Positions 7,188 through 64,000 of a DNA stretch of 64,000 nt are shown here, piece after piece (within the stretch, counting starts at the first letter, position 1; the number at the start of each line of letters is the position of its first letter). The notes under the pieces are model-generated. The model saw nothing but the letters and a program-made list of their open reading frames with translations. It was not told where the DNA came from and did no database searches. Location: NCBI GenBank assembly GCA_020852715.1, contig JADZAE010000075.1, forward strand, positions 23,960 through 87,959, in the 5' to 3' direction. The translations under genes were made by a program, and so were the position numbers. The DNA comes from Deltaproteobacteria bacterium (lineage in GTDB: Bacteria; Bdellovibrionota_C; UBA2361; SZUA-149; JADZAE01).

Positions 7188-7324
7188 TACGCAAGAAGTT
7201 AGTTGAACGGCATATTACTAAGTAATTAAGTTTTGCGTGCGGTATAAAGAAAAGCAAGGATGCTTTTCGCGGAAGCGAAACCCCGATTCGCGTCCGTAAA
7301 TGCCCATAAATAAGCCATTGATGG
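7188..7324 (-). repeat. Rep-A leader element, copy 3 (reverse orientation), ending about 115 bp upstream of the kdsC-like start
   Basis: The reverse complement matches 12312-12464 (GCCATCCATGGCTTCATTAAGAGCA...CGAATCGGGGTTTCGC...ATACCGCAC...GTGCGGTAT). Confidence 0.7.
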
Positions 7325-7440
7325 CCTATTTATGAGCAAAATGAAACTAAGCCCCATCCGGGCGGATTTTGCGAAGCAAAATCATGGGGCAGAAACTAAG
7401 CCTTCACATATTTAGTCGTTTTCGATTAGGAAATGTCAGA
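7325..7440 (+). repeat. Rep-B element, copy 1
   Basis: It shares the core ...TTTTGCGAAGCAAAA..ATGGGG...GACTAAGCCTTCACA..TTAGTCGTTT.CGAT with 28782-28865 and 38358-38440. Confidence 0.65.
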
Positions 7441-7636
7441 TTAATCATTAGTATTTTTATAATAGCGTTATTTGATTGCAATTTTTAACCATGTGAAGGT
7501 TTATCCATTTGCTTAGGGCAATGACAAAATGAATGCGCTATGGGTTTCTGCTCATATACTATGTATTAAAAATGGAAACTTATTGCATATTATATCATCC
7601 AAATTAACACTGCAGTGGAGGTTAAAAAGGAAACTA

Positions 7637-8527
7637 ATGAATAGGCCAATGAAGATATTAACTTTTTATGATGTCCAAGGTTGGGCCTGGTGGCACCGTT
7701 CCCACCATATTCAAGAAAATCTTTCTCCAGCCTTCCAATTGGATATCAAGCAAGACAAGGAAAAGTATAATCCCCTAGATTATGATATCGTCATGATCTT
7801 TGATTATTATTTTTTAACTTTAGATCATTTTACAGTACCGCCGCCGGATCGCTTGCTCATCGGCTGCAGCAACTCCCGATTAATAGATGAAATGATTTAT
7901 GTAGTTGAACAAAGCCACTGCTTGGCCGGTTTCATGAACAACTTTGGCGATTACAAAAAGATGACCGGACATCCCAATTACTTTTGCTGTCAAAACGGAG
8001 TAGATACCAGTCTATTCTATCCGCCTGCGCAACGGCCGGAAAAGTTTAAAGCTTGCTGGGTTGGCAGTCTTAACTCGATGTGTAACAAAGGCGGTGATCT
8101 AATCAAGGCCGCATGTGAAAAGGCCGGGGTGGAATTGATTTGCGTGGGAGTTGATCCCCGCTATGACAAGCTCCTCTCTCACGATCAGCTACGTGAGCAA
8201 GCATATCACCACGCTTCCGTCTTAATCTGCGCATCGGAATTTGAAGGCACCCCAAATCCAGCCTTAGAAGCTATGGCCTGCGGCGTCCCTGTTATTTCCA
8301 CCCGAGTAGGCAACATGCCGGAGCTTATTCGTGAAGGATACAACGGTATTTTAGTCAACCGTAGCGTTGACGAAATCGCTGACGCTATCAGAGTCATTGC
8401 CGCATTAGATAAGGAAACCTTAGCCATTAACTGTCGCCAATCAATCGAAAATGGTTGGACTTGGAAGCAACAAACAAAAAAGTATGAGACAATGTTTACA
8501 ACACTAGCAGCACGACGTGGCTTATAA
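7637..8527 (+). CDS. Glycosyltransferase family 1 (GT4-type)
   Basis: EFEGTPNPALEAMACGVPVIST is the E-X7-E motif. AAGGAA lies 4 nt before the ATG at 7637. The track ORF starts at 7529. Confidence 0.75.
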   Translation: MNRPMKILTFYDVQGWAWWHRSHHIQENLSPAFQLDIKQDKEKYNPLDYDIVMIFDYYFLTLDHFTVPPPDRLLIGCSNSRLIDEMIYVVEQSHCLAGFMNNFGDYKKMTGHPNYFCCQNGVDTSLFYPPAQRPEKFKACWVGSLNSMCNKGGDLIKAACEKAGVELICVGVDPRYDKLLSHDQLREQAYHHASVLICASEFEGTPNPALEAMACGVPVISTRVGNMPELIREGYNGILVNRSVDEIADAIRVIAALDKETLAINCRQSIENGWTWKQQTKKYETMFTTLAARRGL

Positions 8528-8556
8528 GAAACATCATAACGGGGTAAGTTAAAATC

Positions 8557-10056
8557 ATGACACTTTCAACACAGCCGAAAATAAGACAGTATCCCTGCGC
8601 AACGCTCTGTGACATTTCTGATTTTTTAGTACCACGAAACTCCGCATATTTAAAGATATGCAAACCAGGATTTACCCTCTCTACAAAAAGACGGCAGTGG
8701 GAATGGAACTTTATTGCCGAAAGTGCAGAAAACCTGGGGCTACTGGATGGAACAAAAATAGTGATGGGGGTAGGCACTGGTAACGAACCTCTGCTATTCT
8801 TTTTCGCTCGAACCTGCGCCGATGTGTTAGGTTCGGATCTTTATTCCGCAGATACAGATTGGAGTGTGGCGCGTTTTGAAAAGCATGAACAAATCTATAA
8901 TAGCGCTCCCTTTGATTTTCCCAAGGAAAGATTACATTTTGTCAATGCTGACATGAGGAAACTGCCGGTCGAGGATAATAGCTATGACTTTGTATGGTCC
9001 ACATCAACTATTGAGCATCCGGCATCCGCGCGTGAAGTTTACATGGCAATACAGGAAATGCTACGCGTCGTTAAGCCCGGTGGCTATGTTTTATTCACTA
9101 CTGAATACTGCGTTAGCGAGCCGCCCTATTTTCTACCGCACTTAAATACCCTAGACCCGTATTTATTCGGTAAGTATTTTTATAACAATCAGGGATTTGA
9201 AATAATCGGCGATGTCGATTTAGAATTTAACTGGCAGTCTATTACCAATGATATTTCGCTAAGAAGAAATGTTCCAATACCGTATTATAAACATTTTGAT
9301 CAGTTACAGTTTTATGCTCCGCAGAGCATAGTGCAAAGCTTAGGGTTTTCGTTGGTCGTACCAATTGGCATGGTTCTTCGCAAAATTGAAGGGAAAATGA
9401 AATCATGGGATAATTTAGGTCTCCCTCAGGTCTATCTGGATTATGCTAGCGCCGCGGAGGCATTTGACGAAAAAGAATTTAATAAATGTTATTCGTTAAT
9501 TATCAATTACGGTTTACACAACAGCCAAAGTCTCCCGCTGCAGTTTTATGCTCAGTTGGCTACCTTAATTTTACGAGCTAAGCTGGAAATAGGAAATCCG
9601 TATGACAATGAGGCGCTGCAAGTATATCAAAATGTTATTCAGCGTATCCCTTATGGATTACATCAGGATGCTGATCTACTTGATATCCTGGCCTATTACG
9701 CTTCCGGTATGGATAATAAGGAAGTCAGCTCTGAACTGTTATATTTGGTTGTTAATTCTACATCTTCCATTGCCCCTCATGCTATTTCTTGCTCACTAAG
9801 ACGAATGGAAATTCTCGCACAGCTGGGAAAAGAGGAGGAAGGAATTAATTTTGTAATCACTACCTATGGTGCCTATCTCAGCGAGGAAAAGGCTTCTGTC
9901 CCCTTTGCTAATATCATGCAAGAGATTATAAATAAATCTGCAACAAATCCTCTTTATCAAAAATTGCGTGAACGCTTAAAAGATTTACTCGAGAATCAAG
10001 TTAAAACAAGACGGCAAGAGTTAGCGGCTTTTGAACAAGCAACGAATAAGTATTAG
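8557..10056 (+). CDS. Class I SAM-dependent methyltransferase with a C-terminal TPR-like helical domain
   Basis: VMGVGTGNEPL...DNSYDFVWSTSTIEH...VVKPGGYVLF is a Methyltransf_11/23 fold. About 250 aa of helical repeats follow. Confidence 0.7.
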   Translation: MTLSTQPKIRQYPCATLCDISDFLVPRNSAYLKICKPGFTLSTKRRQWEWNFIAESAENLGLLDGTKIVMGVGTGNEPLLFFFARTCADVLGSDLYSADTDWSVARFEKHEQIYNSAPFDFPKERLHFVNADMRKLPVEDNSYDFVWSTSTIEHPASAREVYMAIQEMLRVVKPGGYVLFTTEYCVSEPPYFLPHLNTLDPYLFGKYFYNNQGFEIIGDVDLEFNWQSITNDISLRRNVPIPYYKHFDQLQFYAPQSIVQSLGFSLVVPIGMVLRKIEGKMKSWDNLGLPQVYLDYASAAEAFDEKEFNKCYSLIINYGLHNSQSLPLQFYAQLATLILRAKLEIGNPYDNEALQVYQNVIQRIPYGLHQDADLLDILAYYASGMDNKEVSSELLYLVVNSTSSIAPHAISCSLRRMEILAQLGKEEEGINFVITTYGAYLSEEKASVPFANIMQEIINKSATNPLYQKLRERLKDLLENQVKTRRQELAAFEQATNKY

Positions 10057-10213
10057 TTCCATTAATACTGTCCTCTCAACCATGTCTTAGCCAATTCAGC
10101 GTTATAATTTCTGGTCATGCTCAGCATGCCCCTACATCGTATCGCGGTTATTCATGCGGATGAAAATGTCGTGGCTACTGGGCTTATTATGAAGGAATAT
10201 GATTGGGCCCTTG

Positions 10214-12106
10214 CTATTGCTGCATGTAATCCTGTTTGTGATCAAGCAAATGTCTCCAGGCTTCCACCGTTTTATGCGCTACGTTATCCCAGGTAAAAAA
10301 TTTCGAGCGTTCATAACCGCGTTCAACCAAATCAGCCCTTAGCGTCTCATTAAACATCAGCGCAGTCATCGCTTCCACTAAATCCTCATATCTTCCCGGT
10401 TCAACATAAATGACACAATCGCCACCTACTTCCGGAATGGATCCGCGCGGGGAAGTTATAACTGCGCAGCGTTTGGCCATTGCTTCTAAGACCGGGAAAC
10501 CAAACCCTTCATATTCTGAGGGGAAAAGCAGTCCAGCTGCTCCTGCGTATAAGCACTCCAGCTCCTCTCGGCTTACGAAATCCGTAAACACAACTTCCTT
10601 GACCTCTTCTTTTTTTAGAACGTCTTGAAAAGTTACTTTATAAGGATCGTCTTTGATGCTGCCCGCGACAGCTAACATCGGTGGAAGAATTTTATCAGAA
10701 TCAGCAAATGTTCGATATAATGCTCGAGCGGATCTTAAGACAAATTCAAAGTTCTTATGCGGATCACAGGCGCCGACAGTAAGAAAATACGGTGGTCGTA
10801 AATTAAATTTCTTTAAAACATCTGCTATCTCCTGGGGCGTATAAATTCGTGGTTTATCCGGCTGATTTAGGCCGGCCATAATTACCGCAATTTTATTCGG
10901 ATCAACTCCACCATACCTGATTACATCCTGTCTAGTGCAATCAGAGATTGCCAGAATCTGAGTATTTGAGCTTATCACTTGTTCTAATCTTGAACGATAT
11001 GCGACTTTATTATCTTCTGGCCACTGATCATAGTGGTAATGCGCAGAAACCAAGGGAATTAAATCATAAAAAATTGACGAGGTTGGTAAATGATCGATGC
11101 AACGAAACGGAGAATCAAAGTTTGTTAAGATGGCCATCGGATCCAAAACGAAATAGAGATCGGAATCGGGGCGTGTTTTAGCGCTAAAAAATCCAAATTC
11201 AAATGCCTCTTGGGGTAAATGTTTACGTATTTGCTGGATTGGTGCGCGGGGCTCTACATAAAGCTTGAAACGAAAATTGGGGTATAGTTTATTTATTGTC
11301 TTTAGCAAGTTTACCGCATAATGCCCGATACCGCGTGATATCGATCCCCCAAATGCAAATGTTCGTGCATCAACAGCAATATGCAAGTTCTTCATTACTG
11401 ACATCTGCCAGGCAATTGTTTCAGCATTTGGCCAAACAAAAGTACTTTGCCCGACATCCAAAGAATTGCCTACCGGGATTACTTTCTCCAAACCAGCATC
11501 AGAAAAGGTGAGCAGATGCTCCTTCAAAGTTCCGCCTTTATTTTTTATTTTCTTAATATGTTCAATGAGCGATTTGATTAAGTTTTCTTCTTCCGAGAAG
11601 ATAATCTCTAATGTTTTCGTGGCCAAACCGTTCACCGCTATATAAGTCAAATCTTCCGAGCGGATTGACAGTTGCTGCCACTGTGCTTCATGATAAGGTG
11701 AAATAACTAGCGGGCAGCTGTGTCCATCAACTACTTTTAATATTTGTTCATCCCAAGCTTTAGAAAATGTCGCGCCAGGCTGAAGGAATACTACTAAATC
11801 ATCATTTTGTATCCAATTTAATTGGCCCAAAATATGATTATATATGGCACAAATGCTTTGCGTGGATTCGCTACGCATAAAGCCTTCCGTAAATTCCTCT
11901 AGTTGCTGGAGCCATTCTGTTGTGCCATCGCTGGAGCCATTATCAATCAAGATTAAATTATATGGACAGTAGGCACTGTGATAGAAAGATTCTAAAGTAT
12001 CGGCTAATTTCATCAGACAGTTTGTCGCCACCAAGACAATGGTTAGACGGCGACGCTTTTGCAGCATTTCTTTAACCGCCTGTAGTGAGAATGGTATCTT
12101 ATTCAT
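10214..12106 (-). CDS. Bifunctional glycosyltransferase (N-terminal GT2 domain + C-terminal GT1/GT4 domain)
   Basis: LTIVLVATNC...ILIDNGSSDGT is GT2. The C-terminal FPSEYEGFGFPVLEAMAKRCAVITS is the GT4 E-X7-E motif. Confidence 0.75.
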   Translation of the reverse strand: MNKIPFSLQAVKEMLQKRRRLTIVLVATNCLMKLADTLESFYHSAYCPYNLILIDNGSSDGTTEWLQQLEEFTEGFMRSESTQSICAIYNHILGQLNWIQNDDLVVFLQPGATFSKAWDEQILKVVDGHSCPLVISPYHEAQWQQLSIRSEDLTYIAVNGLATKTLEIIFSEEENLIKSLIEHIKKIKNKGGTLKEHLLTFSDAGLEKVIPVGNSLDVGQSTFVWPNAETIAWQMSVMKNLHIAVDARTFAFGGSISRGIGHYAVNLLKTINKLYPNFRFKLYVEPRAPIQQIRKHLPQEAFEFGFFSAKTRPDSDLYFVLDPMAILTNFDSPFRCIDHLPTSSIFYDLIPLVSAHYHYDQWPEDNKVAYRSRLEQVISSNTQILAISDCTRQDVIRYGGVDPNKIAVIMAGLNQPDKPRIYTPQEIADVLKKFNLRPPYFLTVGACDPHKNFEFVLRSARALYRTFADSDKILPPMLAVAGSIKDDPYKVTFQDVLKKEEVKEVVFTDFVSREELECLYAGAAGLLFPSEYEGFGFPVLEAMAKRCAVITSPRGSIPEVGGDCVIYVEPGRYEDLVEAMTALMFNETLRADLVERGYERSKFFTWDNVAHKTVEAWRHLLDHKQDYMQQ

Positions 12107-12233
12107 TGTGTTGCTGGCTCAACCATTTTAACTAAGCTCCACACCGGAGTAGCTGATAATTTAGACAATTACTTATAAGTATTTGATGCGATTTAGATCA
12201 GTAAAGTTGCAAAGTAGATACCATTACTAAAAA

Positions 12234-12464
12234 CTAAATTAACTTTTGAGCTGAAAAGCATAAATGCTTTCTATCTTTGTCCTAAGGTAATGGTATATTT
12301 TTGTTCGGCTCTTACTTCAGCCATCCATGGCTTCATTAAGAGCATTTTCGGAGGCGAATCGGGGTTTCGCCCCCGAGGAAACCATCCTTGGTTTCCTCCA
12401 TACCGCACTCAAAAATAGTATTACCTAGTAAAGCATCGTTTAATTTAGTTTTTGTGTGCGGTAT
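12234..12464 (+). repeat. Rep-A composite element, copy 1: palindromic operator, extended -10-like box, then structured leader ending in a 16-bp inverted-repeat hairpin
   Basis: The sequence is AAATTAACTTTTGAGCTGAAAAGCATAAATGCTTTCTATC..TGGTATATT..GCCATCCATGGCTTC...ATACCGCACTCAAAAA...TTTTTGTGTGCGGTAT. It ends 109 bp before the ATG at 12573. Confidence 0.8.
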
Positions 12465-12572
12465 ATAACGACTATTGCCATAATATCACTAGCAAATATC
12501 CGATTTGCTAAATTTGAATCAACTCACCTTAGAAATTAATCTTATTAAACAGACAATTATCCAGGGGAAGCA

Positions 12573-15029
12573 ATGAGCAATTTAATGTCATTTATTATTT
12601 GTACTGACTCCTACTATCAGGAAGCCGAGTTAGTCAGTGTACTGATTTCCAGTCAGCAGCAAAGCATAGCCGATTTAGAGGTTATCTGTTTGTGCGACAA
12701 TGATCGTTTGGCCGAGCTTAAAAACATTGCCGCCGACTTCACTGTTCCCGTCAATATTATTTTGACCGATGGAAAAAATGCGAACCAAGGCAAAAATTTG
12801 GCCCTGAAACAAGCTCAGGGAGAATATATTGTTATCCTTGAGCGAGGTTATTTCCCTCAACCTGACTGCTGTAAAAGAATCATAGAAATCTTTCGCAATA
12901 ACCCAACAATTGGAATGATCTACTCATCCACAGATATTATCGGTTCTGACCCTAGTGATCCAAATAGAACGTTTACCTGTCTGCGAGAAACTCCCGGGCC
13001 GCTAATCAAAGCTAACATCCTTTACCGGCCTTTTTTTCCTGCACATACAGCTTTCAAAAAATCGTTATTGCGTCCAGAGATAACCTTTTCCGACCGCATG
13101 AATGACGCCAATAGAATTTTCTTCAACTCCTTATTTATTGAAGCAAGAGAACAAGCTTTTTATCATTCACGGCCTTTGTTTAAAAAATATGTAACGCAGC
13201 TTGATCTGATTAACGATGTCCAGTCCAGCAATCATTTATCTTTGGTCGATTCTGTTAGAAATTGTCCCGGACTGTATTCCCCGGAATTGTATCAGGGATA
13301 TGAAACTTTCCAGCAATTATTTAAGGATAGTATGAGCAAACCGCTGCTCATTTATATTCCTCAGCCGAAAATTGGTGCTGATAATCTTATTGGTGAGGCT
13401 TCATGGCGCTACATTCAATGCATTTATGACATTTGGGATTTCATAATTCTCCAAGTTCCGATCAGTGACCCAGAACAAATGATTGATGGTTTGGTTAATG
13501 GCATGTTTTATTCTCGCTTTTACACTCAGAATATCGATGATACACTCAATCGTATTTGTTCCTTCGGAAAAAAAATTGTCCTAATAGCCGAAGAAAATCC
13601 TGCCCTTTTGATGGCTTCTAAAACCCGCCATCAAGTTATTGTAAGAATACTCTGCACGGCCAATCCTTTTACCTATGAGGATTTTGATCAAATAGATTTG
13701 GTGATCAAGGCCAGCGAATATACCCCGGTTCAGCTAAACAACACAGCATGCTTAGATACATCAATTCGCGAACTAACTGGCGATCCGGCGGTTCAAAGTG
13801 CCCTTGCGCAGCTATTTTATGAAAAAGAAAGTGAGCGCGATACAAATTTAAAAGCATTGGCTCTAAAACTAAAGACAGCTAAACAATATTTGCGTAATTA
13901 TAAAGCCCCTAACCAGGACGAACTTTCATTATCGGTCATTATTGGTTGTCGCAATGTCCAACTGGAATGCCTAGAACGCTGCGTAGCCTCGTTACGTCAG
14001 CAAGATCACGTCTCGGCTATTGACATCATTTTATCTGACTATGGATCAGATAATCTTCACAGGGAGGAGTTAAAAGCTTTAGCCGATCGCTACCAGGCAA
14101 AGCATGTCTATACACCTTCGACGAACTGTTGGTCTCGTTCGATTGCGCTTAATATTGGTATCCAATCAGCAACTAAAAAATGGGTGTTAACAACCGACGC
14201 CGATATGCTTTTTAGTCGCGGTTTTATCTCGATGCTCTCGGCCTATCTTAAAGCTTTCGGCGAAAAGTGCGTATTCTATGCACAACCTTTAAAGCTACTA
14301 CCGGTGCGATTGCCCAAGGATTGGAACAACAGCCTTTATGATCAATATGCACAACGAAGTTGGCTCTTTGACAAAATCGGCAAAGGTGGCTGTCAGGTAG
14401 CGACACGAGAACTATTAATGAAGGTACGCGGCTTTAACGAGATTTATTCCGTTTGGGGTCAAGAAGATCACGATATGTATGAGCGCCTAGGCTGGGCCGG
14501 GCTAGAACGAGTATGGATTGAACCCTGCTGGTATCTGCATCAATGGCATCTGTCGAATATTAACTACGCCGCAGCTAACAACGCCAATACCGAAGCTTAC
14601 TTAGAGTTAAAAAAGATTCCCAAAGTAATAGTCAACCGTCCGTTTTGGGGAAAAAGTTCACCAGCAGCTTTCATGAAAGCGCAAAATTCACATACTTCGT
14701 TTGCTTCTACCGGGCTTAATAAAAATGACTTGGAAAGAGACATTCTCGAAAATGATTTTGATCCTGTAATGCAGAAACAAATTCTTACCGGTATTGTTCG
14801 GACACTCATTGAACTTGAGCAGTACGGTTCAGCATTACAAACGCTGGAAGATATCTGTCAGCTTGATAGCCGAGATTATGAGGCGTTTACTCTCAGGGCC
14901 CAAATTACTTCCATGTTAGGCGATCACTGTTTTGCCCGAATTCTTATCGATCAGGCTTTGGAAGCTAATTCTTATCACCAGCAGGCTCTTGATCTGAGTA
15001 ATATGTTAATCCAGCGCTACGGATTATAG
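12573..15029 (+). CDS. Tandem GT2 glycosyltransferase (two GT2 domains) with a C-terminal TPR domain
   Basis: The two GT2 cores are VICLCDNDRL...EYIVILERG and LSVIIGCRN...ILSDYGSDN...TTDADMLF. The C-terminal region (ILTGIVRTLIELEQYGSALQTLEDICQLD...) is TPR-like. Confidence 0.75.
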   Translation: MSNLMSFIICTDSYYQEAELVSVLISSQQQSIADLEVICLCDNDRLAELKNIAADFTVPVNIILTDGKNANQGKNLALKQAQGEYIVILERGYFPQPDCCKRIIEIFRNNPTIGMIYSSTDIIGSDPSDPNRTFTCLRETPGPLIKANILYRPFFPAHTAFKKSLLRPEITFSDRMNDANRIFFNSLFIEAREQAFYHSRPLFKKYVTQLDLINDVQSSNHLSLVDSVRNCPGLYSPELYQGYETFQQLFKDSMSKPLLIYIPQPKIGADNLIGEASWRYIQCIYDIWDFIILQVPISDPEQMIDGLVNGMFYSRFYTQNIDDTLNRICSFGKKIVLIAEENPALLMASKTRHQVIVRILCTANPFTYEDFDQIDLVIKASEYTPVQLNNTACLDTSIRELTGDPAVQSALAQLFYEKESERDTNLKALALKLKTAKQYLRNYKAPNQDELSLSVIIGCRNVQLECLERCVASLRQQDHVSAIDIILSDYGSDNLHREELKALADRYQAKHVYTPSTNCWSRSIALNIGIQSATKKWVLTTDADMLFSRGFISMLSAYLKAFGEKCVFYAQPLKLLPVRLPKDWNNSLYDQYAQRSWLFDKIGKGGCQVATRELLMKVRGFNEIYSVWGQEDHDMYERLGWAGLERVWIEPCWYLHQWHLSNINYAAANNANTEAYLELKKIPKVIVNRPFWGKSSPAAFMKAQNSHTSFASTGLNKNDLERDILENDFDPVMQKQILTGIVRTLIELEQYGSALQTLEDICQLDSRDYEAFTLRAQITSMLGDHCFARILIDQALEANSYHQQALDLSNMLIQRYGL

Positions 15030-15071
15030 CTACTAGAGGGCTAGGGATTTTCTATACCACTCCCAAGAAAT

Positions 15072-15491
15072 AAATTAACTTTTAAGCTGAAAAGCATAAA
15101 TGCTTTCTATCTTCGTCCTATGGGAATGGTACATTTTTGTTTCGCTCTTAATCCTAAAAAAATCAGTCGAGGCGATAGGAAGCCTCAAAAAAATAAAAAA
15201 TCGCGCCCACTTACCTTAGAATTTGAAAATTACCAGCGGGTGGCGCGATTTTTTATTTTTTTGAGGGCTACCTAAAGAGATTCACTGAGTTTTTGGGATT
15301 GATAAAACGGCTACTGCCGTTTTTAGGTTAATTTAGCCATCCATGGCTTCATTAAGAGCAGATGCGGGAGCGAATCAGGGTTTCGCTCCCGAAGAAAGCA
15401 TCCTTGCTTTCCTTTATACCGTACACAAAAATAGTATTACCTGGTAAAGCACCGTTCAAGGTCTTTGTTTCAACTTTTTTGTGTACGGTAT
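15072..15491 (+). repeat. Rep-A composite element, copy 2, carrying a ~185-bp insertion (15150-15333) that holds a terminator cassette
   Basis: Identical blocks are AAATTAACTTTTAAGCTGAAAAGCATAAATGCTTTCTATC and GCCATCCATGGCTTCATTAAGAGCA...ATACCGTACACAAAAA...TTTTTTGTGTACGGTAT. The element ends 146 bp before the ATG at 15637. Confidence 0.8.
15236..15330. terminator. Repeated terminator cassette (hairpins AAAAAATCGCGCCCAC/GTGGCGCGATTTTTT and AAAACGGCTACTGCCGTTTTT), also present at the window end
   Basis: These are GC stem-loops flanked by A/T runs on both sides. The reverse complement matches 63928-64000. Confidence 0.6.
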
Positions 15492-15636
15492 AAATATTAC
15501 GCCTTTGATTGGGCTCGCGTCTCATTATTGTTCAATAGTAAATTCTTGCGGCAATATAAACAGAATGCTAGTAATTCCTATCGGCCCTTAGTTAAATAGA
15601 TAGCCTACTAATATGACATTTTTACCTGGTTGTTAA

Positions 15637-17214
15637 ATGAGCTCGTTAATCGCATTGGAGATAGAAAAGGGAAACATCGCTTTTGTTAAAGCCTATTCCT
15701 CCAATGACGGCCAATTTCTCGTATCTGAAATAGGTTCGCTTCCTCTTCCGCCGGAAGATCTTCCCGAGGAAAATTTAACAGCAAATGGGGAAACGGTGGA
15801 GACCTCTACGGAAAGCATCATTCCCGAATCTACCATTGATGACGAATCTAGCGAAGAAGATAGCCTACCTTTTGATTTAACCATCGCCCCGGCTCTTGTT
15901 GCTGATGGTTTTTTGGGCGTAATCAATCACGAATTTGTATCTACGCATAATATTAGCTTACCCTTCGGAGACAGAAAAAAAATAGAGCAGGTGGCACCAC
16001 TACAAATTCAGGATGTCGTGCCCTTTGATATCGATGACTACATTCTCGATACGATAATTTCCAGCGGACAGGATAATGTTTACGACATCTGTGCTGCCTT
16101 AGCTCCAAGTTTTCAAATTCGGAGCATGCTTCAATCGTTACGGCATTTGCAAATCAATCCTAAAATTATCTCGACCAAAGCATCGGCCGTCTCCGCTTGG
16201 TCAACCTTTTTTCCGGAAGTAATCAGCAGCAACGGGCATTTGCTATCCTTTACCGAGAAAAGCTTCTTTGACTGCCTTTATGTTAACGGCCAACTACAGT
16301 TAATGCGCGAGGTTGATTTCCCCAAAAAAACGCTTGATTTAAAATTTGTGGCCACACAACTTTTGATGACTAATGCTAAATATGCTCGCGATAACAAGGT
16401 AACAATCTCCGATGCTTATTTATTGGGGCACAAAGATCTTGCCTATCAACTTAGCACTATGACAAAAGGCCGGGTCATCTCCTTGGATTTATCCGAATAT
16501 TATAAGGTTTCCTCGGATCTTAATGTTAATGGAGATAATTATGCTTGGGCACTGGGGTTGATGCTTCATGAAAACATCAGGGGGAAAAAAACAGCGCTCA
16601 TTAATTTTCGCCGTGGCCCTTTTGCTTACAAGCAATTCTTTACTGACATCATTAACGCCGCAAAAGAACAAATAGATTATTATTTTTATGCTGTGGCCGC
16701 TGTTGCTATTTGGATTTTCATTTCCATTTACACCACATCATTAGCGTTAGCCAAAATCAACGAGACAATCGATGAGCGAATGAAGCAGGTGTTACCTAAT
16801 GAATTTATTGATGAGGGCAAAGAAATTACTTTACTTTCGCGCAAACTAGAGACGATAAACGATGAGCTCAAGGATTTAGGGCCACCAACAACAATTACCA
16901 CGTTAGAATCAATTTTATTACTTTCATCAATTATCACCAAAGAAGTCGATACAAAAATTGAGACCCTAAGCATCGGTCCAGCCGGAATTCTTTTTCAGGG
17001 TTCGGTATCGGACTTAGCCAAGATTGGCAAATTACAATCGATACTGGAAAACAATCGAAGCCGGTTTTGTGAGGTAAAAGAGGACTCTTGCAAAATTAGT
17101 GTCGAACCAAAGGGACAACTTCCCGGTTCAAATAGAACAAAATTTTCCGCAGAAATCGTCACGATGGACTTAAAAGATAAGGGATTAGAACGGAATAACA
17201 ATGAATTGGAGTAA
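15637..17214 (+). CDS. GspL / PilM-PilN-like inner-membrane platform protein (actin-like cytoplasmic domain, one TM helix, periplasmic coiled-coil domain), divergent
   Basis: The N-terminus MSSLIALEIEKGNIAFVKA...EIGSLPLPP resembles PilM (LLGIDISSTSVKLL...VEPLPP). A TM helix lies near residue 345 (YFYAVAAVAIWIFISIY). An acidic low-complexity insert follows the N-terminus. Confidence 0.45.
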   Translation: MSSLIALEIEKGNIAFVKAYSSNDGQFLVSEIGSLPLPPEDLPEENLTANGETVETSTESIIPESTIDDESSEEDSLPFDLTIAPALVADGFLGVINHEFVSTHNISLPFGDRKKIEQVAPLQIQDVVPFDIDDYILDTIISSGQDNVYDICAALAPSFQIRSMLQSLRHLQINPKIISTKASAVSAWSTFFPEVISSNGHLLSFTEKSFFDCLYVNGQLQLMREVDFPKKTLDLKFVATQLLMTNAKYARDNKVTISDAYLLGHKDLAYQLSTMTKGRVISLDLSEYYKVSSDLNVNGDNYAWALGLMLHENIRGKKTALINFRRGPFAYKQFFTDIINAAKEQIDYYFYAVAAVAIWIFISIYTTSLALAKINETIDERMKQVLPNEFIDEGKEITLLSRKLETINDELKDLGPPTTITTLESILLLSSIITKEVDTKIETLSIGPAGILFQGSVSDLAKIGKLQSILENNRSRFCEVKEDSCKISVEPKGQLPGSNRTKFSAEIVTMDLKDKGLERNNNELE

Positions 17215-17740
17215 GATACTAAACTCTTTTACGAACCTGAATAAAAGGGAACGCCTATTTGTGGTCATCGCTTCCGCCGGCGTCGTATTTTTTGTCCTCT
17301 TCACCCTGAGTGATTATTTATATTCGCTTGGTGACCAAAAGGTCGAGATTGCAAAAAGGCGCGATGAGTTAAAGCAAATAAGCCGCTTATTGCAGGTTTA
17401 TCAGGCACGACAGACTCGTCATAAAATGGTTTTAGATATGCTTGCTCAATCGCAAATAAGTGCCGAACAAGCCTACAGTAACCTTGATAACATTGTAAAA
17501 AAAATCGGGTCTGAGAAATATGATCTTAAGCCTAAAGGTGAAGCTAAAAGACGTGGCGCTGATTATGAAGCCAAAGATTATACTTTAAAAATATCTTCAT
17601 TAAAAAGAGAACAGCTAGTAAATCTTCTTTTTGAAATCGAACAAAGCAAGGGCCTATTTCTAAAAAAGGTCGATATTCTTAGCCGGGCCGGGGGTAATTT
17701 TGAGGCCACCTTGGAGATTTACAGTATTACAAAATCTTAG
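17201..17740 (+). CDS. GspM/PilO-like protein (N-terminal TM + periplasmic domain)
   Basis: 179 aa with a single TM helix (LFVVIASAGVVFFVLF). It overlaps the upstream gene by 14 nt, consistent with an operon. Confidence 0.4.
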   Translation: MNWSKILNSFTNLNKRERLFVVIASAGVVFFVLFTLSDYLYSLGDQKVEIAKRRDELKQISRLLQVYQARQTRHKMVLDMLAQSQISAEQAYSNLDNIVKKIGSEKYDLKPKGEAKRRGADYEAKDYTLKISSLKREQLVNLLFEIEQSKGLFLKKVDILSRAGGNFEATLEIYSITKS

Positions 17741-17751
17741 GTTACGTTCTA

Positions 17752-18639
17752 ATGCTCAAGCAGCGAAAACTATATTTTCTGATAGCTGTTTTGTTCGGCT
17801 TGTTTTTATTTTCGGCTTTGATCGTTCGTCAAAGCGGACTTTCTTTATATCAATCGCTAAAGGATTCAGCTAGCGCACAGGATACGCAGTTTTCTGGATC
17901 TACCCCTACTTTCTCCCTGCCGTTAGTCTTTAAAATTGAGAACCTAATTGTTTCATTACCAACTAAACCAATACGTCTACCAATTGAGCTTAAGAATAAT
18001 AAACTTCGGCTATCTTTACTGAACCTGCTTTTAGCGCGAGTGCGCGCTAGTTCCAATTCCGATTTTTATGAAGGAAAGGTAATTGGAGAAATAACCGGCC
18101 CGTCGTTTTCAGCTCCCGACAATTTCATGCTTAAGGGATCTAATATTTTGCTTGAACAATATCCGCTTTTACAAATGCTTAGATTAAGTGGCAAACTGGG
18201 CTTTGAACTTGAGGTTAATCAAGTGTTGGTTAAGAAGATAAAACAAAATAATTTTCGGCTAGAGGCCGAAATTAACGAGGGGTCTTATCAAGGGAATTAT
18301 AAGATTCAAGGACTTTTTCCTATTCCTAGCATAAAAACTTATAACCTCAAGTTATCAGCTAGTGGAAAAGGTCGCTTTAGCACGCTAAAACTCTTAGACT
18401 TCAGATCGGATTTAGGCGACGTTAAGGTCAAGGGGACAGCGAATTTTAGTGAAGATTATCACAAGCTAAATGGCAGCATCTCTGGTAAAATCACCCTGAC
18501 TCCGAAGGGCCAAAAAGAATTAGGAGACTATTTGAGAATGGCAGCAAAAAGCTCCCCCTCTGAATCCGGGGATGGATATGATTTCAACATTATGTTTGAT
18601 GAAAAAAAGATCACCGATTTTACTGTAACTCCGGAATAG
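17752..18639 (+). CDS. GspN-like (or GspC-like) membrane-anchored periplasmic protein
   Basis: 295 aa with an N-terminal TM helix. Its position after the L and M homologues follows the canonical gspL-gspM-gspN order. No PDZ domain was recognised. Confidence 0.3.
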   Translation: MLKQRKLYFLIAVLFGLFLFSALIVRQSGLSLYQSLKDSASAQDTQFSGSTPTFSLPLVFKIENLIVSLPTKPIRLPIELKNNKLRLSLLNLLLARVRASSNSDFYEGKVIGEITGPSFSAPDNFMLKGSNILLEQYPLLQMLRLSGKLGFELEVNQVLVKKIKQNNFRLEAEINEGSYQGNYKIQGLFPIPSIKTYNLKLSASGKGRFSTLKLLDFRSDLGDVKVKGTANFSEDYHKLNGSISGKITLTPKGQKELGDYLRMAAKSSPSESGDGYDFNIMFDEKKITDFTVTPE

Positions 18640-18684
18640 TTTAGCAATACTTATAACTTTAGATAGAAAAGATTAGGCAGTAAT

Positions 18685-19368
18685 ATGGAAATAAATTTAT
18701 CATTGTTTCTGGTTATCGTAGTTGTCGTTTTAATTGTGGGCTGCTTGGCTATTATTAAACTACCAAAGTTCCTTTCCCATATCATCGCTCGACATATTAC
18801 CAAAGACGCTGGTGACCTGGGAGCAGCAATAGTAGAATTAGATGACATAATTAACGATCTGCGTTCTCGCTTAGCTAAGATGGTGCCCAATCAACAATAC
18901 GAGGAAATTAAAGCGAAAATTCCACAAATGGAAACCCAGCTTAAAACATTGCAAAACACTCTTGCCCAAGTGGAAAGAGAGCTGGCTACACAAAAAGGAA
19001 TAATTAATAATAAGGAATCTCTACATAACGAAATCAAAAAGGGACGAGCAGAAAGTATAAAATTAGCCGACGAGTTGATTGCTAACAAAGAGATTTTATT
19101 AAATGAAATGAGTCTTCTCCAGGATCAGTTAGCCGATTCCAAGGCTCAGTTAGACTCCTTAAATGAAGAAGTGGAGCTTACTGATGCACAAAAATCTGCT
19201 TTGGCTGATATCAAAACATCTTTAGATTCGACAGTAGGACAGTTAAACGAACTAGCCGTGGCTTACGGCCAAATCTCGAAGAGCTTCGTTACCCTAGAAG
19301 GACAATACAAAGAATTAGAGAAAGAATATCGTAGGTTAATTGAAGTCGAACTGAGCCGCCACCAGTAG
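18685..19368 (+). CDS. Membrane-anchored coiled-coil protein of unknown function
   Basis: An N-terminal TM helix (LSLFLVIVVVVLIVGCLAII) is followed by about 170 aa of heptad-rich sequence. Confidence 0.4.
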   Translation: MEINLSLFLVIVVVVLIVGCLAIIKLPKFLSHIIARHITKDAGDLGAAIVELDDIINDLRSRLAKMVPNQQYEEIKAKIPQMETQLKTLQNTLAQVERELATQKGIINNKESLHNEIKKGRAESIKLADELIANKEILLNEMSLLQDQLADSKAQLDSLNEEVELTDAQKSALADIKTSLDSTVGQLNELAVAYGQISKSFVTLEGQYKELEKEYRRLIEVELSRHQ

Positions 19369-19475
19369 AGCCTACCCGGACCAGTCAGAATCTTGCCTTT
19401 TTCTAATGAATCTGGTATTAAATGCCCCGCGCTTGGATGTCCAAGCAGAAATAAAAACCTATATAAATAAAAGCT

Positions 19476-19757
19476 ATGCAGAAGGTTAAAAGAAATCTGA
19501 TTTCCAAATCTGAGTACGCTGTACTTAACAACCTGAATCAAAAATATCATTACAACAAGCTAAACCCTGTATCCGATATAAGTCAGATCTCCATTGAAAC
19601 TGGAATTCGTAATAATGACGAAGTATTACGTGCCCTTTATACACTTGAAGGGAAAAGCCTTGTTTCCCCCGAACCGAAAGGGTCGTTTACGAGCAATATC
19701 TGGAAAATTACAGATATTGGACTTAAGGCTGTAGAGCTAGTCGAGCAGCAAAAGTAA
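19476..19757 (+). CDS. Small winged-helix-like putative DNA-binding protein
   Basis: 93 aa. ISIETGIRNNDEVLRALYTLEGKSLVS...WKITDIGLKAVE looks like a wHTH. Weak. Confidence 0.3.
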   Translation: MQKVKRNLISKSEYAVLNNLNQKYHYNKLNPVSDISQISIETGIRNNDEVLRALYTLEGKSLVSPEPKGSFTSNIWKITDIGLKAVELVEQQK

Positions 19758-19824
19758 TGAGCTTTCTCGATTTCGGCTGACCACTGAGTCAAACTTCGCG
19801 GGTCGAGAGCGTTAATAATTGATT

Positions 19825-21159
19825 TCAGCCAATGTGGTGCTGCAATTCTTGGACAAGCTTATAGTTATCCGAATGACCTGTCATGCGGGCTCTCAATTTC
19901 CCCTGTAACGGCCGGCCTATCAGGAACAAATCCCCTATCGCATCAAGTATCTTATGGCGTGCCAATTCTTCCGGGAAACGTAATTCTGTATTGATTACTT
20001 TATCTTCTCCAATCAAGATAAAATTATTAAGACGTCCACCAGCAGCTAACCCGGCCTTTTGCAGTTTTTCGATATCTTTCATGAAGCCAAATGTACGTGC
20101 CGGAGCTATCTCCGATTTAAAGGTATCTTTGCCATTGAGCTTAAACTCGAAAAGCAGACGTCCTACCGGAGCGGGGTAAATTAACTCATATACGATAGTT
20201 AACCCGTCCTCCGCAGAAGGCTCTAAGCATAGGCTTTCTCCCATTTTGGCCTCGGAGAAATTTAATTCTATCTTCTCCTGCACAGCCAACTCGAACCACT
20301 GACCACCCTGCTCAACGATGCCAATCTCATCAAGCCTGTTACAAATTGTGCTTCCCGAGCCATCAAAAATGGGGACTTCATCATTACATTTAACCAACAG
20401 ATTGGTAATGCGATAAGCGTGTAGCACCGCCATTAAGTGTTCAATCGTTGATACTGTGGCACGATTAGAGCTAAGTGCTGTAGCAAATGCAGTTGTATCA
20501 ACATAATCAACAAATGCCGGAATGGTCTGGGTTTCCCCAATTTTTGAAAAATGGATACCGGAATTTATCGGTAGCGGTTCAAGTACCAATCCGCTTTTCT
20601 GACCGGAGTGTAGACACTGCCCATATAATATTGTGCTTTTAGCAATAGTTCTTTGCCCAAGATTTTTCCCCTTCCATCCGGTGGATAAAACACCACGGTG
20701 ATTCAACAAGCCTAACTTGCCAGAATCATCACCGGATAAATTAATTTCTTTGTGCTTGTTACGTTTCTTCTCTAACGCACGCGAGGCAGAAAATATTACA
20801 CTTTCAATATCAAAGGGTTTTTCGATAAAGTCAAACGCACCGCGTTTCGTGGCTTCTAATGCATTGGAAATAGTGGCGTGACCGGAAATCATGATCACTT
20901 CCGTATCTGGAGAGACCTGTTTAATTTTTTCTAAGGTCTCCACGCCATCCCAACCGGGCATCCAAATATCTAAAAAAACAAGATCAGGATTGTGTTTTTT
21001 AACAGCTTCCAGAGCTGCCTGGCCATCATGAGCGGATAGTGTATCATAACTTTCATCGCGCAGAACACTACTTAGAGAGGTGCAAATACTATCCTCGTCA
21101 TCGACAACTAAAATCAACGGCATTTTTATTTCTGTGGAAGCATTTTCCAGTCTATCCAT
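19825..21159 (-). CDS. lpxC: Response-regulator receiver (NtrC-type REC) domain fused to UDP-3-O-acyl-N-acetylglucosamine deacetylase LpxC
   Basis: The REC domain runs ILVVDDEDS...VFLDIWMPGWDG...IMISGHAT...FDFIEKPFD, with D, S/T and K all present. The LpxC part has TILYGQCLHSGQKSGLVLEPLP, ARTFGFMKDIEKLQKAGLAAGG and HKILDAIGDLFL. GAGG lies 5 nt before the ATG at 21159. Confidence 0.8.
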   Translation of the reverse strand: MDRLENASTEIKMPLILVVDDEDSICTSLSSVLRDESYDTLSAHDGQAALEAVKKHNPDLVFLDIWMPGWDGVETLEKIKQVSPDTEVIMISGHATISNALEATKRGAFDFIEKPFDIESVIFSASRALEKKRNKHKEINLSGDDSGKLGLLNHRGVLSTGWKGKNLGQRTIAKSTILYGQCLHSGQKSGLVLEPLPINSGIHFSKIGETQTIPAFVDYVDTTAFATALSSNRATVSTIEHLMAVLHAYRITNLLVKCNDEVPIFDGSGSTICNRLDEIGIVEQGGQWFELAVQEKIELNFSEAKMGESLCLEPSAEDGLTIVYELIYPAPVGRLLFEFKLNGKDTFKSEIAPARTFGFMKDIEKLQKAGLAAGGRLNNFILIGEDKVINTELRFPEELARHKILDAIGDLFLIGRPLQGKLRARMTGHSDNYKLVQELQHHIG

Positions 21160-23026: not shown

Positions 23027-24067
23027 TTATTTTTTATATGCCTTGACCGCCGAACGTAGCGGCGCCGGATAACCTTCAATAGTTTTGCAACTATCGTTTT
23101 TATCCAGATAATCAGCCAGACTTTTCACCGATCCATAACAAGTAGAACGTTGCTCGGCTGTTGTAAGTTGCACTTCCGAAAATATTTGAGCATCAACAAA
23201 TCCTGATCGTTCCAACCATGCCTTAATACACTGTGCAGATGGGAGATAATATACATTTCTCATTTGAGCGTAGCGATCGAAAGGGAATAAAGCAAGAGGT
23301 AAATCAGAACTAATTCCCTGACTTTCGACTATAATCAGACCACCGCTAGCCATAGAGTCATAGATATTTCTCAGCATCTCTAGCGGATCTTTCTGATGAT
23401 AGATAATCCCCATACAAAGAACCACATCAAAAAATTGAGGAAACAGATTTATGTCTTCTACGCCTAGGCGTAAAAAAGATAACCTTTTATCTAACAAATA
23501 CTTTTGCGCTAAATGATAAGCGAAGTAAAAACTTTCATATGGTTCAAAACCGACAATAGATTCCGGGTCTAAGGATAGAGCCCTAAACATATAGTAACCG
23601 TTACCACATCCAAGGTCGGCAATTTTTTTACCACGGATATTTTGCAGTTCCGGCACTATGCGTGCCCATTTCATATCGCTACGCCATTCCGCATCCACTT
23701 CTTCTCCAAAATATCGAAATGGCCCTTTGCGCCAGGGCTTTAGTTGGAGAAGCACTTGGATTAAAGCCTTCTGTTCCTCGGCCGTTAAGTCTCCCTCATT
23801 GCCAATAGAAACAATGGACTGGAGATAATCATGATTACAGGAATTACGGGCATTAAGTAGAGAACCATCAGGCAAAGCAGAAAAACTCTCCAATAGATGG
23901 TCCCAAATACCGCGGCCTAAATCATTAACTAAGGGCAAAGCTTTTGCGACAATGGCATCATAATCCAATTGATCATGGTATTTGAGTAGCAAATTAAAAT
24001 CATCGATAATTTGATTTCCTAGGTTAGCGAGCAGCTTTTGGTTGATGTCATTATTGATTAAAGCCAT
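23027..24067 (-). CDS. cmoB: tRNA U34 carboxymethyltransferase
   Basis: LKPWRKGPF and ADLGCGNGYY are CmoB signatures. The length matches. Confidence 0.85.
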   Translation of the reverse strand: MALINNDINQKLLANLGNQIIDDFNLLLKYHDQLDYDAIVAKALPLVNDLGRGIWDHLLESFSALPDGSLLNARNSCNHDYLQSIVSIGNEGDLTAEEQKALIQVLLQLKPWRKGPFRYFGEEVDAEWRSDMKWARIVPELQNIRGKKIADLGCGNGYYMFRALSLDPESIVGFEPYESFYFAYHLAQKYLLDKRLSFLRLGVEDINLFPQFFDVVLCMGIIYHQKDPLEMLRNIYDSMASGGLIIVESQGISSDLPLALFPFDRYAQMRNVYYLPSAQCIKAWLERSGFVDAQIFSEVQLTTAEQRSTCYGSVKSLADYLDKNDSCKTIEGYPAPLRSAVKAYKK

Positions 24068-25380: not shown

Positions 25381-25385
25381 ATATA

Positions 25386-25444
25386 CCTTACACAAAAAGT
25401 TTGAACGGTGTCTTACTGGGTATTACTATTTTTGTGTGCGGTAT
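25386..25444 (-). repeat. Partial Rep-A hairpin copy (CCTTACACAAAAA...TTTTTGTGTGCGGTAT) between convergent genes
   Basis: Its loop is the reverse complement of the copy-2 loop (ATAGTAATACCCAGTAAGACACCGTTCAAAC). Confidence 0.6.
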
Positions 25445-25470
25445 AAAATACATTGCCGAAGAGTACATAA

Positions 25471-28189: not shown

Positions 28190-28744
28190 GCATTAATGCT
28201 ATTTCGGAAATGCTGCAAGCTCTGCCGTTAAGAACTCAGTAGCGAATTTGCTTCATGAACCACAACAAACGCAACATCCCACTTCTTCAATCTGACAGTG
28301 CAAAGCAACTCTTTCCTTACTACCCAACGAACTTATAGACGCGCTTTTCAAACCAAAGGGTTCAAAAAAATGCCTATTGAATAAGAAAAAAGTTATCGCA
28401 CCAACTTCGACTACCCCCAGCTAAACAAGGTCAGAAAACTCGAGCATCGTTCCCATAAAAAACCAGTATTTCCTTAGGGCGGATACTACGTTAGTTTGTT
28501 TGCAAACAAAATAGCATTTACAAAACTTTTACATCTTTTTGTTACAAAAACCGACCTCTAGCTGTCAACATGATAGTCCTTAGTTCTTGTACTCACAGAT
28601 TTAGAGAGAATTAAGATCCCTAACTGCGATGGCAATCTATTACCTTTACTTCGGTAGTAATAGCTGGGTGTAAAGTTAAGCTCTCTAAATAGCTATCATT
28701 TAAGCCTTAAGAGGGTTTTAATGTATCCGTTCACGACCTTTACT

Positions 28745-28937
28745 GAGTTTCTATTCAAAAGCCTCCAGAGGAAGCAAGTTTTGCGAAGCAAAACTATGGA
28801 GGGGACGAAGACTAAGCCTTCACAAGATTAGTTGTTTCCGATTATAAAACGACAATAAATAACTATAAATGTTCATATTTGCAATACCTCAGGAACGCTA
28901 TTAGTAATAATCCGTGAAGGCTTACGTTTTAGCTTCG
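28745..28937 (+). repeat. Rep-B element, copy 2 (with distal inverted repeat TAAGCCTTCACAAG / CCGTGAAGGCTTAC)
   Basis: It matches 38316-38520 over about 190 bp and contains the hairpin GTTTTGCGAAGCAAAAC. Confidence 0.75.
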
Positions 28938-38165: not shown

Positions 38166-38315
38166 ACCAACAGTTCGTAAACTTTTTAATATGGAAGTGT
38201 GGGGATATTTCTTTTTACCTCTTTAATAACCTTCATTAATAAGCCAAACCAAACCTCATAACCTGGAGATACCTTGACTAATCAGGCCTTCCGGCTCAAC
38301 TGCTTCGGTAAAATG

Positions 38316-38520
38316 AATCCATTCACGATTTTTACTGAGTTTCTATCCAAAAGCCCCAAGAGGGGGCAAGTTTTGCGAAGCAAAACTATGGGGGGATGAA
38401 GACTAAGCCTTCACAAGATTAGTCGTTTCCGATGAGGAAACGTCAATAAAATTAAAAATATCCATTTTTTATAATACCCCCAAATTTTTAATAAATCTTA
38501 TCCCGTGAAGGCTTACGGTA
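38316..38520 (+). repeat. Rep-B element, copy 3
   Basis: It matches 28745-28937. Confidence 0.75.
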
Positions 38521-47340: not shown

Positions 47341-48802
47341 TTATGCCTGATGGTAGTGGCAATGTCGGTATCGGCACAACAGACCCGCTACAACAGCTAG
47401 CGCTAAGCAAATCAATTAGGCTAGAAGAAACTACAGCGTCTGATATTGGGGTTGTGTATAAGGGGAGCAATCGTTTCATTCATGACTTCCGAGCTTAGGA
47501 AACTGATGGCCAAAATATATTTGTTGGTCTTAACACTGGTAATTTCACATTGACCGGAACGATGAACCAGAGTGACAGTAGTTACAACACCGCGCTCGGT
47601 TATAGTGCTCTTACCGCTCTAGAAACAGGAAGCTATAATACCGCAATTGGGCATACTGCATTAACAGCTAATACTACTGGAACTGATAACACAGCTATCG
47701 GTGCAATGGCTCTTGGTATAAATACGGAAGGAGCAGCGAATGTGGCTATTGGATCGGGGGCTTTATCCTTAGTAACAACAGGGTCAGATAATGAGGCCAT
47801 CGGTACTGGCACGGGAGCAAACTTAGTAAGTGGCTCTAACAACACTTTTATCGACAAGCAAGCGGGGGTAGAGATTAACGGTTCGGGAAACGTTTTTATT
47901 GGTTACAGCGCCGGATTTTACGAGACAGGAAGCAATAAACTGTTCATCGACGCACCCTTACGACTAGGCCGCTAATCTATGGCGACTTTAGCACCGATAG
48001 GTTAATTATTAATAACACCATACAGCTCGGTAGCAATAGTGCTGACGGAAGTTTTACAATATTCTCAGAGCAAGGAGGAACCGATTATACTGTTGCCTTT
48101 TCTCCTCATGCTACAATGACGCAAAACGTAACTTATACATTGCCGGCGAATGATGGCGATGCGGGACAAGTATTACAGACAGATGGTAGTGGATCTCTGA
48201 GCTGGGCAACAGCAGCCTCGACGGCGCATGATCATAATGCTAACTATATTGCCTCGCTTGCTCATAATCACGATACGAACTATGCAGCCGCAGCACACGC
48301 TCACTCCGATTATTTAACGTCATTGGCACATAATCATGATGCTGAATATATCACGTCTTTAGCTCACGATCACGATAGCGATTATGTCGCCGCAGCGCAT
48401 GCTCACTCTGATTACTTGAGCTCGCTGGCACATAATCACAGTGGGGATAACTCACTTCCTTAGCACATAACCACGCCGCTGATTATTTGGCTAAAGGCGG
48501 GGACACAATGACAAGAAGCTTGACCTTCTCCGGTGTGGGAGGTTCCTTATGCGATTACTATCCGTAACATAAAAGTCCTTACTGTCGGCGGCTTTGACGA
48601 AACAGATAGTAATGGTGGAACTGTTGTCGCCGTGGATAGCGACATTACTGCTACTGCCGGCACTAGAGCTTCGGACGACGGATCGCTTACTAACCCGACA
48701 ATCGCCGCCAACAATAATGTCTATTGGCATACAACTTCGATCTTCGGCTCACCAACCACTATTATTGTAACTTTCTACGACACAGTTGATTCCGTGAACT
48801 AA
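47340..48802 (+). pseudogene. Phage tail-fibre-like gene remnant (NTAIG repeats, YTLPANDGDAGQVLQTDGSGSLSW motif, His-rich SLAHNHDxxY repeats), frameshifted at least twice
   Basis: ORFs 47550-47975, 48116-48463 and 48533-48802 are contiguous in shifted frames. The motifs are characteristic of tail-fibre / short-fibre proteins. Confidence 0.5.
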
Positions 48803-63927: not shown

Positions 63928-64000
63928 GCAAAAAACGGCAGTAGCCGTTTTATTAACCCTAAAAAACTCAATCTATCTCTTTAGGTAGCCCTCAAAAAAT
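63928..64000. terminator. Terminator cassette (AAAAAACGGCAGTAGCCGTTTTATT...) identical to 15236-15330 in reverse orientation
   Basis: The hairpin AACGGCAGTAGCCGTT followed by a T-run sits immediately after the HAD stop. The flanking sequence CTCTTTAGGTAGCCCTCAAAAAA is conserved. Confidence 0.65.

Follow-up and report, generated by a model that had tools for sequence, protein, structure and literature searches.

This study deals with five consecutive genes in a 64,000-nucleotide stretch of DNA, called the window below, which corresponds to positions 23,960 to 87,959 of contig JADZAE010000075.1 in assembly GCA_020852715.1, a metagenome-assembled genome (MAG) placed in Bdellovibrionota_C by GTDB. 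All five are open reading frames (ORFs) on the + strand: a gspL-like gene (15637-17214, 525 aa); a gspM-like gene (17201-17740, 179 aa), the first 14 nt of which are shared with the end of gspL; a gspN-like gene (17752-18639, 295 aa); a gene for a coiled-coil (CC) membrane protein (18685-19368, 227 aa); and a gene for a small protein (19476-19757, 93 aa). The remaining gaps are of 11 nt (gspM to gspN), 45 nt (gspN to CC) and 107 nt (CC to the small gene). According to the hydropathy profiles, there is one hydrophobic segment apiece in GspL (residues 347-371), GspM (19-37), GspN (7-25) and CC (6-24), and none in the 93-aa protein. A sequence-only reading of this DNA had taken the first three genes for gspL-gspM-gspN at the distal end of a type II secretion system (T2SS) operon; the fold and profile of GspL, the families of GspM and GspN and the presence of orthologues in complete operons, all set out below, bear this out.

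That reading had also noticed no T2SS core genes nearby, and this holds for the whole 64 kb: Pfam scans of the larger ORFs returned no secretin, T2SSE, T2SSF, T2SSG or pseudopilin, and a six-frame regular-expression search for the prepilin motif G-F-T-L-I-E gave 0 matches. The larger ORFs encode, according to Pfam, glycosyltransferases, methyltransferases, housekeeping proteins, flagellin and the like, with no core component of a T2SS or of a type IV pilus (T4P).

We modelled the GspL-like protein with AlphaFold2 on an alignment of five sequences, at medium confidence (predicted local distance difference test, pLDDT, of 61.7). Its N-terminal part is an actin-like domain interrupted by a disordered insert, after which come a long helix (residues 346-385) that contains the single transmembrane (TM) segment (residues 347-371, positions 16675-16749 on the + strand, hydropathy peak 2.04) and a C-terminal domain with the alpha-beta-beta arrangement repeated twice (helices 422-432 and 460-472; strands 440-447, 450-457, 486-494 and 501-508; pLDDT 62-83). 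When this model was compared to the PDB with Foldseek, PilM came out on top (1.1e-13; range 1e-13 to 5e-12), followed by FtsA, and the cytoplasmic domains of GspL proteins were also matched (4pht at 3.5e-9, PulL 5tkw at 6.2e-9 and EpsL 1yf5 at 1.6e-8). The structure-based search places the protein among PilM/GspL folds and not in an unrelated family. A sequence profile built from ten members of the family matches Myxococcus xanthus PilM (3jc8) at 2.9e-14, and a direct phmmer search of the window's GspL and GspN against PDB sequences returned nothing. The PilM-like actin fold with a TM helix and a periplasmic domain, as first read from the letters, agrees with these matches, the model and the hydropathy. 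In the model, the ferredoxin-like domain follows the TM helix in the same chain, which is the layout of a PilM-PilN fusion, and GspL/PulL is defined precisely as PilM and PilN in one chain (PMC10191384). Among ten relatives, four match the Pfam family T2SSL (PF05134; best 1.3e-7) and three match PilM_2; the distant homologues carry the source name "general secretion pathway protein L". By transitive homology and genomic context, the window's protein is a GspL, as far as sequence and model can tell.

Within the first subdomain of its actin-like fold, GspL carries an acidic, proline-rich disordered insert (residues 35-92, positions 15739-15912 on the + strand), a little longer than the low-complexity region of about residues 35 to 80 first noticed. 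Its 58 residues comprise 16 D/E, 7 prolines and not a single K/R; residues 40-91 are modelled as disordered with a pLDDT below 50, and both the length and the sequence of the insert vary across all five close homologues.

The second protein had been described as small, bitopic and encoded by a gene overlapping gspL; it is so, with a TM segment at residues 19-37 preceded by a K/R-rich N-terminal tail (four K/R in the N-flank). Of 11 relatives, 10 match the Pfam family T2SSM (PF04612; best 2.8e-10), and the window copy shares 34-47% identity with the M genes of related loci. It also gives a partial match to NCBIfam GspM_XpsM (NF040576; E 3.8e-4, 20.2 bits for a cutoff of 60), limited to its N-terminal 59 residues. 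A profile of the GspM family found nothing significant in the PDB.

The third protein, read as a bitopic protein in the GspN position, has a TM segment at residues 7-25 followed by a predicted periplasmic body. It matches TIGR04411 (T2SS_GspN_Lepto) almost end to end (E 4.1e-10, residues 4-270 aligned to positions 4-263 of the 280 of the model) with 39.6 bits, the equivalog cutoff being 50. At the level of the family, all eight members, that is, the window copy and seven relatives, have TIGR04411 matches with E ≤ 0.01, the best being 5.2e-20. In Pfam, the window copy finds no match, and a word-indexed search for its homologues returned only GspN itself. GspN is a component unique to T2SSs (PMC10191384); it is an AsmA-like beta-groove protein with a beta-taco periplasmic fold, which Acinetobacter and Klebsiella need specifically when their T2SS exports lipoproteins to the surface of the cell (PMC12802150).

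The order L-M-N is shared by more than 15 independent loci, in which GspL identities span 21-56%, and the relatives of the window are MAGs and metagenomic contigs of Bdellovibrionota/Bdellovibrionales. In several of them, the three genes stand inside a complete T2SS operon, where the GspL orthologues are 22-29% identical to that of the window. A 529-kb Bdellovibrionales contig (L008) carries GspC (T2SSC plus PDZ)-GspD-GspE-GspF-GspG-pseudopilins-J-L-M-N, with a type_II_gspD_N0 domain in its secretin; a 151-kb contig (L023-L026) carries gspD-E-F-G-H/I-J-L-M-N followed by CC and the small gene; in L006, three pseudopilin genes, T2SSJ included, come directly ahead of L-M-N; and in the operons of the distant P0007 and P0008, pseudopilin genes (T2SSG-type in P0008) precede J-(K)-L-M-N.

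Two features of these operons deserve a mention in their own right. No GspK-like gene is recognisable in L006 (1262-3623), L008 (8969-11497) or L023 (5936-8367), where gspL comes directly after a T2SSJ-type gene; the more distant L007 and P0008 contigs have a gene of 409-450 aa in the K position, and that of P0008 gives a weak T2SSK match. Moreover, the GspE ATPases of L008 (4353-6062) and L023 (878-2530) carry an MshEN domain, which PMC5013675 presents as a receptor domain for cyclic di-GMP (c-di-GMP), so T2SSs of this type may be under c-di-GMP control.

As the best structural and profile matches of GspL are to PilM, ahead of GspL itself, and as some of its relatives match Pfam PilM_2, we considered whether the three genes could encode the PilM-PilN-PilO platform of a T4P or of an MSHA-type pilus, with the first protein as a PilM-PilN fusion and the second as PilO. 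A class A penicillin-binding protein (PBP) gene is found just upstream of gspL in one group of related loci (L009-L015), called PBP1A-linked below. This linkage of PBP and gspL resembles the ponA-pilM neighbourhood found in some Gammaproteobacteria. We nevertheless rejected this platform, which we regard as highly improbable, on the strength of the third gene and of the neighbours: the third gene encodes GspN, with its restriction to T2SSs and the match of its whole family to TIGR04411; relatives of the second protein match T2SSM and not PilO; a single PilM-PilN chain is what defines GspL/PulL; and the orthologues have as neighbours T2SSC, a secretin of the type_II_gspD_N0 kind, T2SSG and T2SSJ, which are T2SS genes and not T4P genes.

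In the PBP1A-linked loci, which belong to high-GC Bdellovibrionota, gspL-M-N-CC lies directly downstream of the PBP gene and in the same direction (for example, 6835-13586 in L013). The PBP has Transgly, Transpeptidase and UB2H domains, and its gene adjoins ruvA/ruvB and a gene for an NtrY-like kinase; the complete operon of L023 adjoins the same ruvAB-PBP1A neighbourhood.

The module is detached, as it is in the window, in L001 (28%, 34% and 26% identical to the window for L, M and N, respectively), L003, L004, L018 and the PBP1A-linked group. This detachment, together with the presence of two extra genes foreign to a textbook T2SS, would fit a paralogous accessory platform, the genome having a complete T2SS with its own L-M-N elsewhere and the detached set serving another filament or specialised substrates. 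On a neighbour-joining (NJ) tree of GspL, however, detached and contiguous loci interleave as orthologues do, and do not form two paralogue clades: L001 groups with L008 (76% bootstrap) and the PBP1A-linked loci group with L023 (100%). They are, therefore, orthologues in which the linkage to the D-J genes was broken more than once, rather than a separate paralogous system. The complete operon of L023 also ends in the same CC-small tail, two L-M-N sets were seen at none of the loci examined, and the third protein belongs to the T2SS-specific GspN family, all of which argue against the paralogous platform; we, thus, consider it unlikely, and the "divergent accessory system" that had been offered as an alternative to the T2SS is not supported by the GspL tree.

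The last two genes had been described as following the T2SS-like genes, and they are present as described; they do more than follow, both being conserved after gspN in relatives. In the CC protein, a TM anchor at the N-terminus is followed by a coiled coil of about 200 residues. It aligns end to end with the product of the gene after gspN in L009 and L011-L013, and a homologue also comes after gspN in L014. Searched exhaustively with HMMER, 1.84 billion representatives yielded 145 proteins at E ≤ 1e-3 (72 at E ≤ 1e-10), of which 132 cluster representatives are 200-240 aa long, mostly about 220 aa; CC is, therefore, a discrete family and not coiled-coil noise. We accordingly discarded compositional similarity as an explanation, given this narrow length range, the end-to-end alignment, the shared N-terminal TM segment and the same position after gspN. 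The family is outside Pfam, and its source label, "chromosome segregation ATPase", is a mislabel. In 129 of the 132 members, the TM segment starts near residue 4; the stretch ahead of it has about 0 K/R and the 15 residues that follow have about 3.1, so that the coiled-coil body is predicted to be cytoplasmic by the positive-inside rule. A metagenome scan with the CC alignment added a single locus, L015, of the PBP1A-linked type; the contigs of P0075 and P0110 were too short to give a gene context.

The gene order L-M-N-CC-small is found in L016/L017 and in L018, where it is followed by a convergent gene for a REC-LpxC fusion, purA and a ferredoxin gene, which reproduces the full synteny of the window. 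In L020, the order is N, crp, CC-small, REC-LpxC. The pair forms the final two genes of the complete gspD...N operon of L023-L026, and CC comes after L-M-N in L009-L015 as well. The small protein is 52-60% identical to the product of the gene after CC in L017, L018 and L020 and 33-35% identical to that of the complete operons L023/L024. Its matches to families of the winged-helix type are all sub-threshold (DUF505 at 0.0019 in four of five members, TrmB at 0.048, LexA_DNA_bind at 0.075) and its profile has no significant match in the PDB; it is a soluble protein and possibly a winged helix, so the winged-helix label of the sequence-only reading is plausible. Judged from gene order and similarity, both tail genes are a conserved part of the block rather than incidental neighbours, and this conserved tail is the only new point here, the T2SS core being ordinary, if divergent.

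As to what the pair does, our guess is that it is a cytoplasmic accessory or regulatory pair, acting on the machine at its GspE/GspL face or else on how it is expressed. Going further, the two proteins could form a previously unrecognised, lineage-specific sub-module of the Bdellovibrionota T2SS that couples the assembly or activity of the machine to gene expression, a suggestion that we offer as speculative and rather doubtful. One possibility would be that the tethered coiled coil holds or releases a small DNA-binding protein, or that it docks onto GspE or GspL.

The absence of any core gene in 64 kb and the drift of the window's GspL and GspM beneath Pfam detection could also be those of an evolutionary remnant, in which the T2SS core has been lost and the L-M-N-CC-small block is decaying or has been repurposed. 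All five ORFs are intact and tightly spaced, though, and the detached five-gene block is also intact in L017 and L018, where GspL is 29-33% and the small protein 52-57% identical to their window counterparts, which argues for long-term purifying selection. A remnant is, in our opinion, quite improbable.

Taken together, we consider it fairly probable that the five genes make up the distal part of a T2SS operon of the Bdellovibrionota type and stand apart from the gspC/D-E-F-G-pseudopilin block. A split T2SS is the best reading because the orthologues stand within complete operons, because detached and contiguous versions are interleaved on the GspL tree and because Legionella offers a precedent. 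Several points weigh against it. With zero T2SS core genes in 64 kb, a partner D-J block elsewhere in the genome, which we infer, is an assumption. The L, M and N assignments depend on their relatives and, for GspL, on a model of medium confidence: the window's GspL has no Pfam match at E ≤ 1, PF05134 (T2SSL) included, nor does the window's GspM have one itself, and GspN scores under its equivalog cutoff. The single-sequence AlphaFold2 model of GspN, with a pLDDT of 37, is unusable and gives no view of the beta-taco fold. The GspL tree, built by NJ, is small, and its deep nodes are weak (25-29%). Finally, neither tail gene is an obligatory neighbour, as the CC gene does not come after gspN in L001 and L008, and the small gene is absent from the PBP1A-linked loci.

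If the block is indeed the distal part of a split T2SS, its five genes would form a transcription unit of their own, apart from the gspC/D-E-F-G-pseudopilin block. From what is known of the families, the PilM-like cytoplasmic domain of GspL would hold the GspE ATPase at the inner membrane, and GspL would pair in the periplasm with GspM via ferredoxin-like domains, thereby building the assembly platform of the pseudopilus, while GspN, as an AsmA-like groove protein, may serve the export of surface lipoproteins. CC and the small protein would face the cytoplasm, where GspE, the cytoplasmic part of GspL and GspF are, and may have an accessory or regulatory role there, which we propose with low confidence. 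The members of the block would presumably contact one another.

In practical terms, names can now be given to five proteins of this MAG that count as "hypothetical" (IT292_10015 onward). Detached gspLMN blocks belong in T2SS counts for Bdellovibrionota, as genomes otherwise look T2SS-incomplete. In this phylum, secreted hydrolases likely leave the cell through the T2SS, and the presence of a Leptospira-type GspN suggests, by analogy, surface lipoprotein export as well. CC, an unannotated family of 145 representatives, and its 93-aa partner are candidates for an undescribed cytoplasmic T2SS accessory; the sub-module, if it exists, would concern a largely predatory phylum.

Upstream of gspL is a 607-nt spacer (15030-15636), preceded by a GT2 glycosyltransferase gene (12573-15029). 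A sigma-70 scan of 14900-20000 gave fewer promoter-like sites than shuffled sequences and none upstream of gspL, so we claim no promoter for this gene. The glycosyltransferase gene had been correctly noted in the sequence-only reading, which also placed a "Rep-A" regulatory module upstream. "Rep-A" is probably a dispersed, hairpin-rich intergenic repeat, with long copies upstream of the glycosyltransferase gene (12218-12480) and upstream of gspL (15054-15150 plus 15328-15459) and partial copies at 7203-7325, 25381-25447 and 63931-63999, all three on the - strand. The two long copies are 86-88% identical, the gspL copy having a 177-nt insertion that bears a hairpin; compensatory changes between copies are found in two stems, and the RNA fold z-score is -6.55. 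An Rfam search in E-value mode of 12100-15650 gave chance-level matches only. From its sequence, the repeat looks like an element of the repetitive extragenic palindrome or miniature inverted-repeat transposable element (REP/MITE) kind. A regulator dedicated to the gspLMN operon was rejected, as partial copies occur elsewhere, with at least four or five in the window.

A second intergenic repeat family is represented at 28720-28859 and 38312-38450 (about 140 nt, 88-90% identical) and at 7360-7443 (69-83% identical to the long copies), with a palindrome-like core, TTTTGCGAAGCAAAA. Upstream of the module, large genes for multidomain glycosyltransferases and methyltransferases are clustered (7529-15029); they encode, among others, an 818-aa protein that has two GT2-like regions and ends in a TPR tail, and a 630-aa fusion of GT2 and GT4. 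Large GT4 genes are likewise present upstream of gspL in L003, the closest relative. Downstream of the small-protein gene, the convergent REC-LpxC gene (19825-21159, - strand) encodes the lipid A deacetylase LpxC with an N-terminal response-regulator receiver domain, an unusual fusion for an essential lipopolysaccharide enzyme. It is also present in L018 (8049-9452), L019 (1224-2627) and L020 (3395-4735), and it is convergent with the CC-small pair in several relatives. Elsewhere in the window, a 102-nt unit is tandemly duplicated (48223-48426, 73% identity) within a small ORF region (48116-48463) that has no Pfam match.

Compared to canonical T2SSs, such as Vibrio Eps and Klebsiella Pul, the block has the same L-M-N order at the operon end and the same topologies, GspL combining a cytoplasmic actin-like domain, a TM helix and a periplasmic ferredoxin-like domain, and GspM and GspN being bitopic; the GspL model matches the EpsL/PulL cytoplasmic domains, and relatives of GspM match T2SSM. 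It differs in that the cytoplasmic domain of GspL is closer to full-length PilM and carries the 58-residue acidic disordered insert, in that GspL and GspM are beneath Pfam detection, in the two extra conserved genes after gspN and, in the related complete operons, in the lack of a recognisable GspK between J and L. With the Leptospira-type GspN of TIGR04411, the third protein shares a near full-length match, the same position after gspM and the same N-terminal TM anchor, but its 39.6 bits fall under the cutoff of 50, and a role in lipoprotein export would be extrapolated from Gammaproteobacteria. The type IVa pilus proteins PilM-PilN-PilO have homologous folds, and the best PDB matches of GspL are PilM of P. 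aeruginosa, T. thermophilus and M. xanthus; in that pilus, however, PilM and PilN are separate chains and GspN is lacking (PMC10191384), and no PilP/PilQ follows in the window.

The closest parallel for the detachment itself, already brought up in the sequence-only reading, is the Lsp system of Legionella pneumophila, the T2SS genes of which are spread over five loci with a separate lspL-lspM locus (PMC6617341). Legionella belongs to another phylum, has no CC or small partner genes and is without gspN (PMC12802150), whereas the break in the loci described here lies between J and L and has apparently arisen more than once. Lsp is, nonetheless, a functional T2SS with L-M apart from the D/E and F-K genes, so detachment by itself does not preclude a single working machine.

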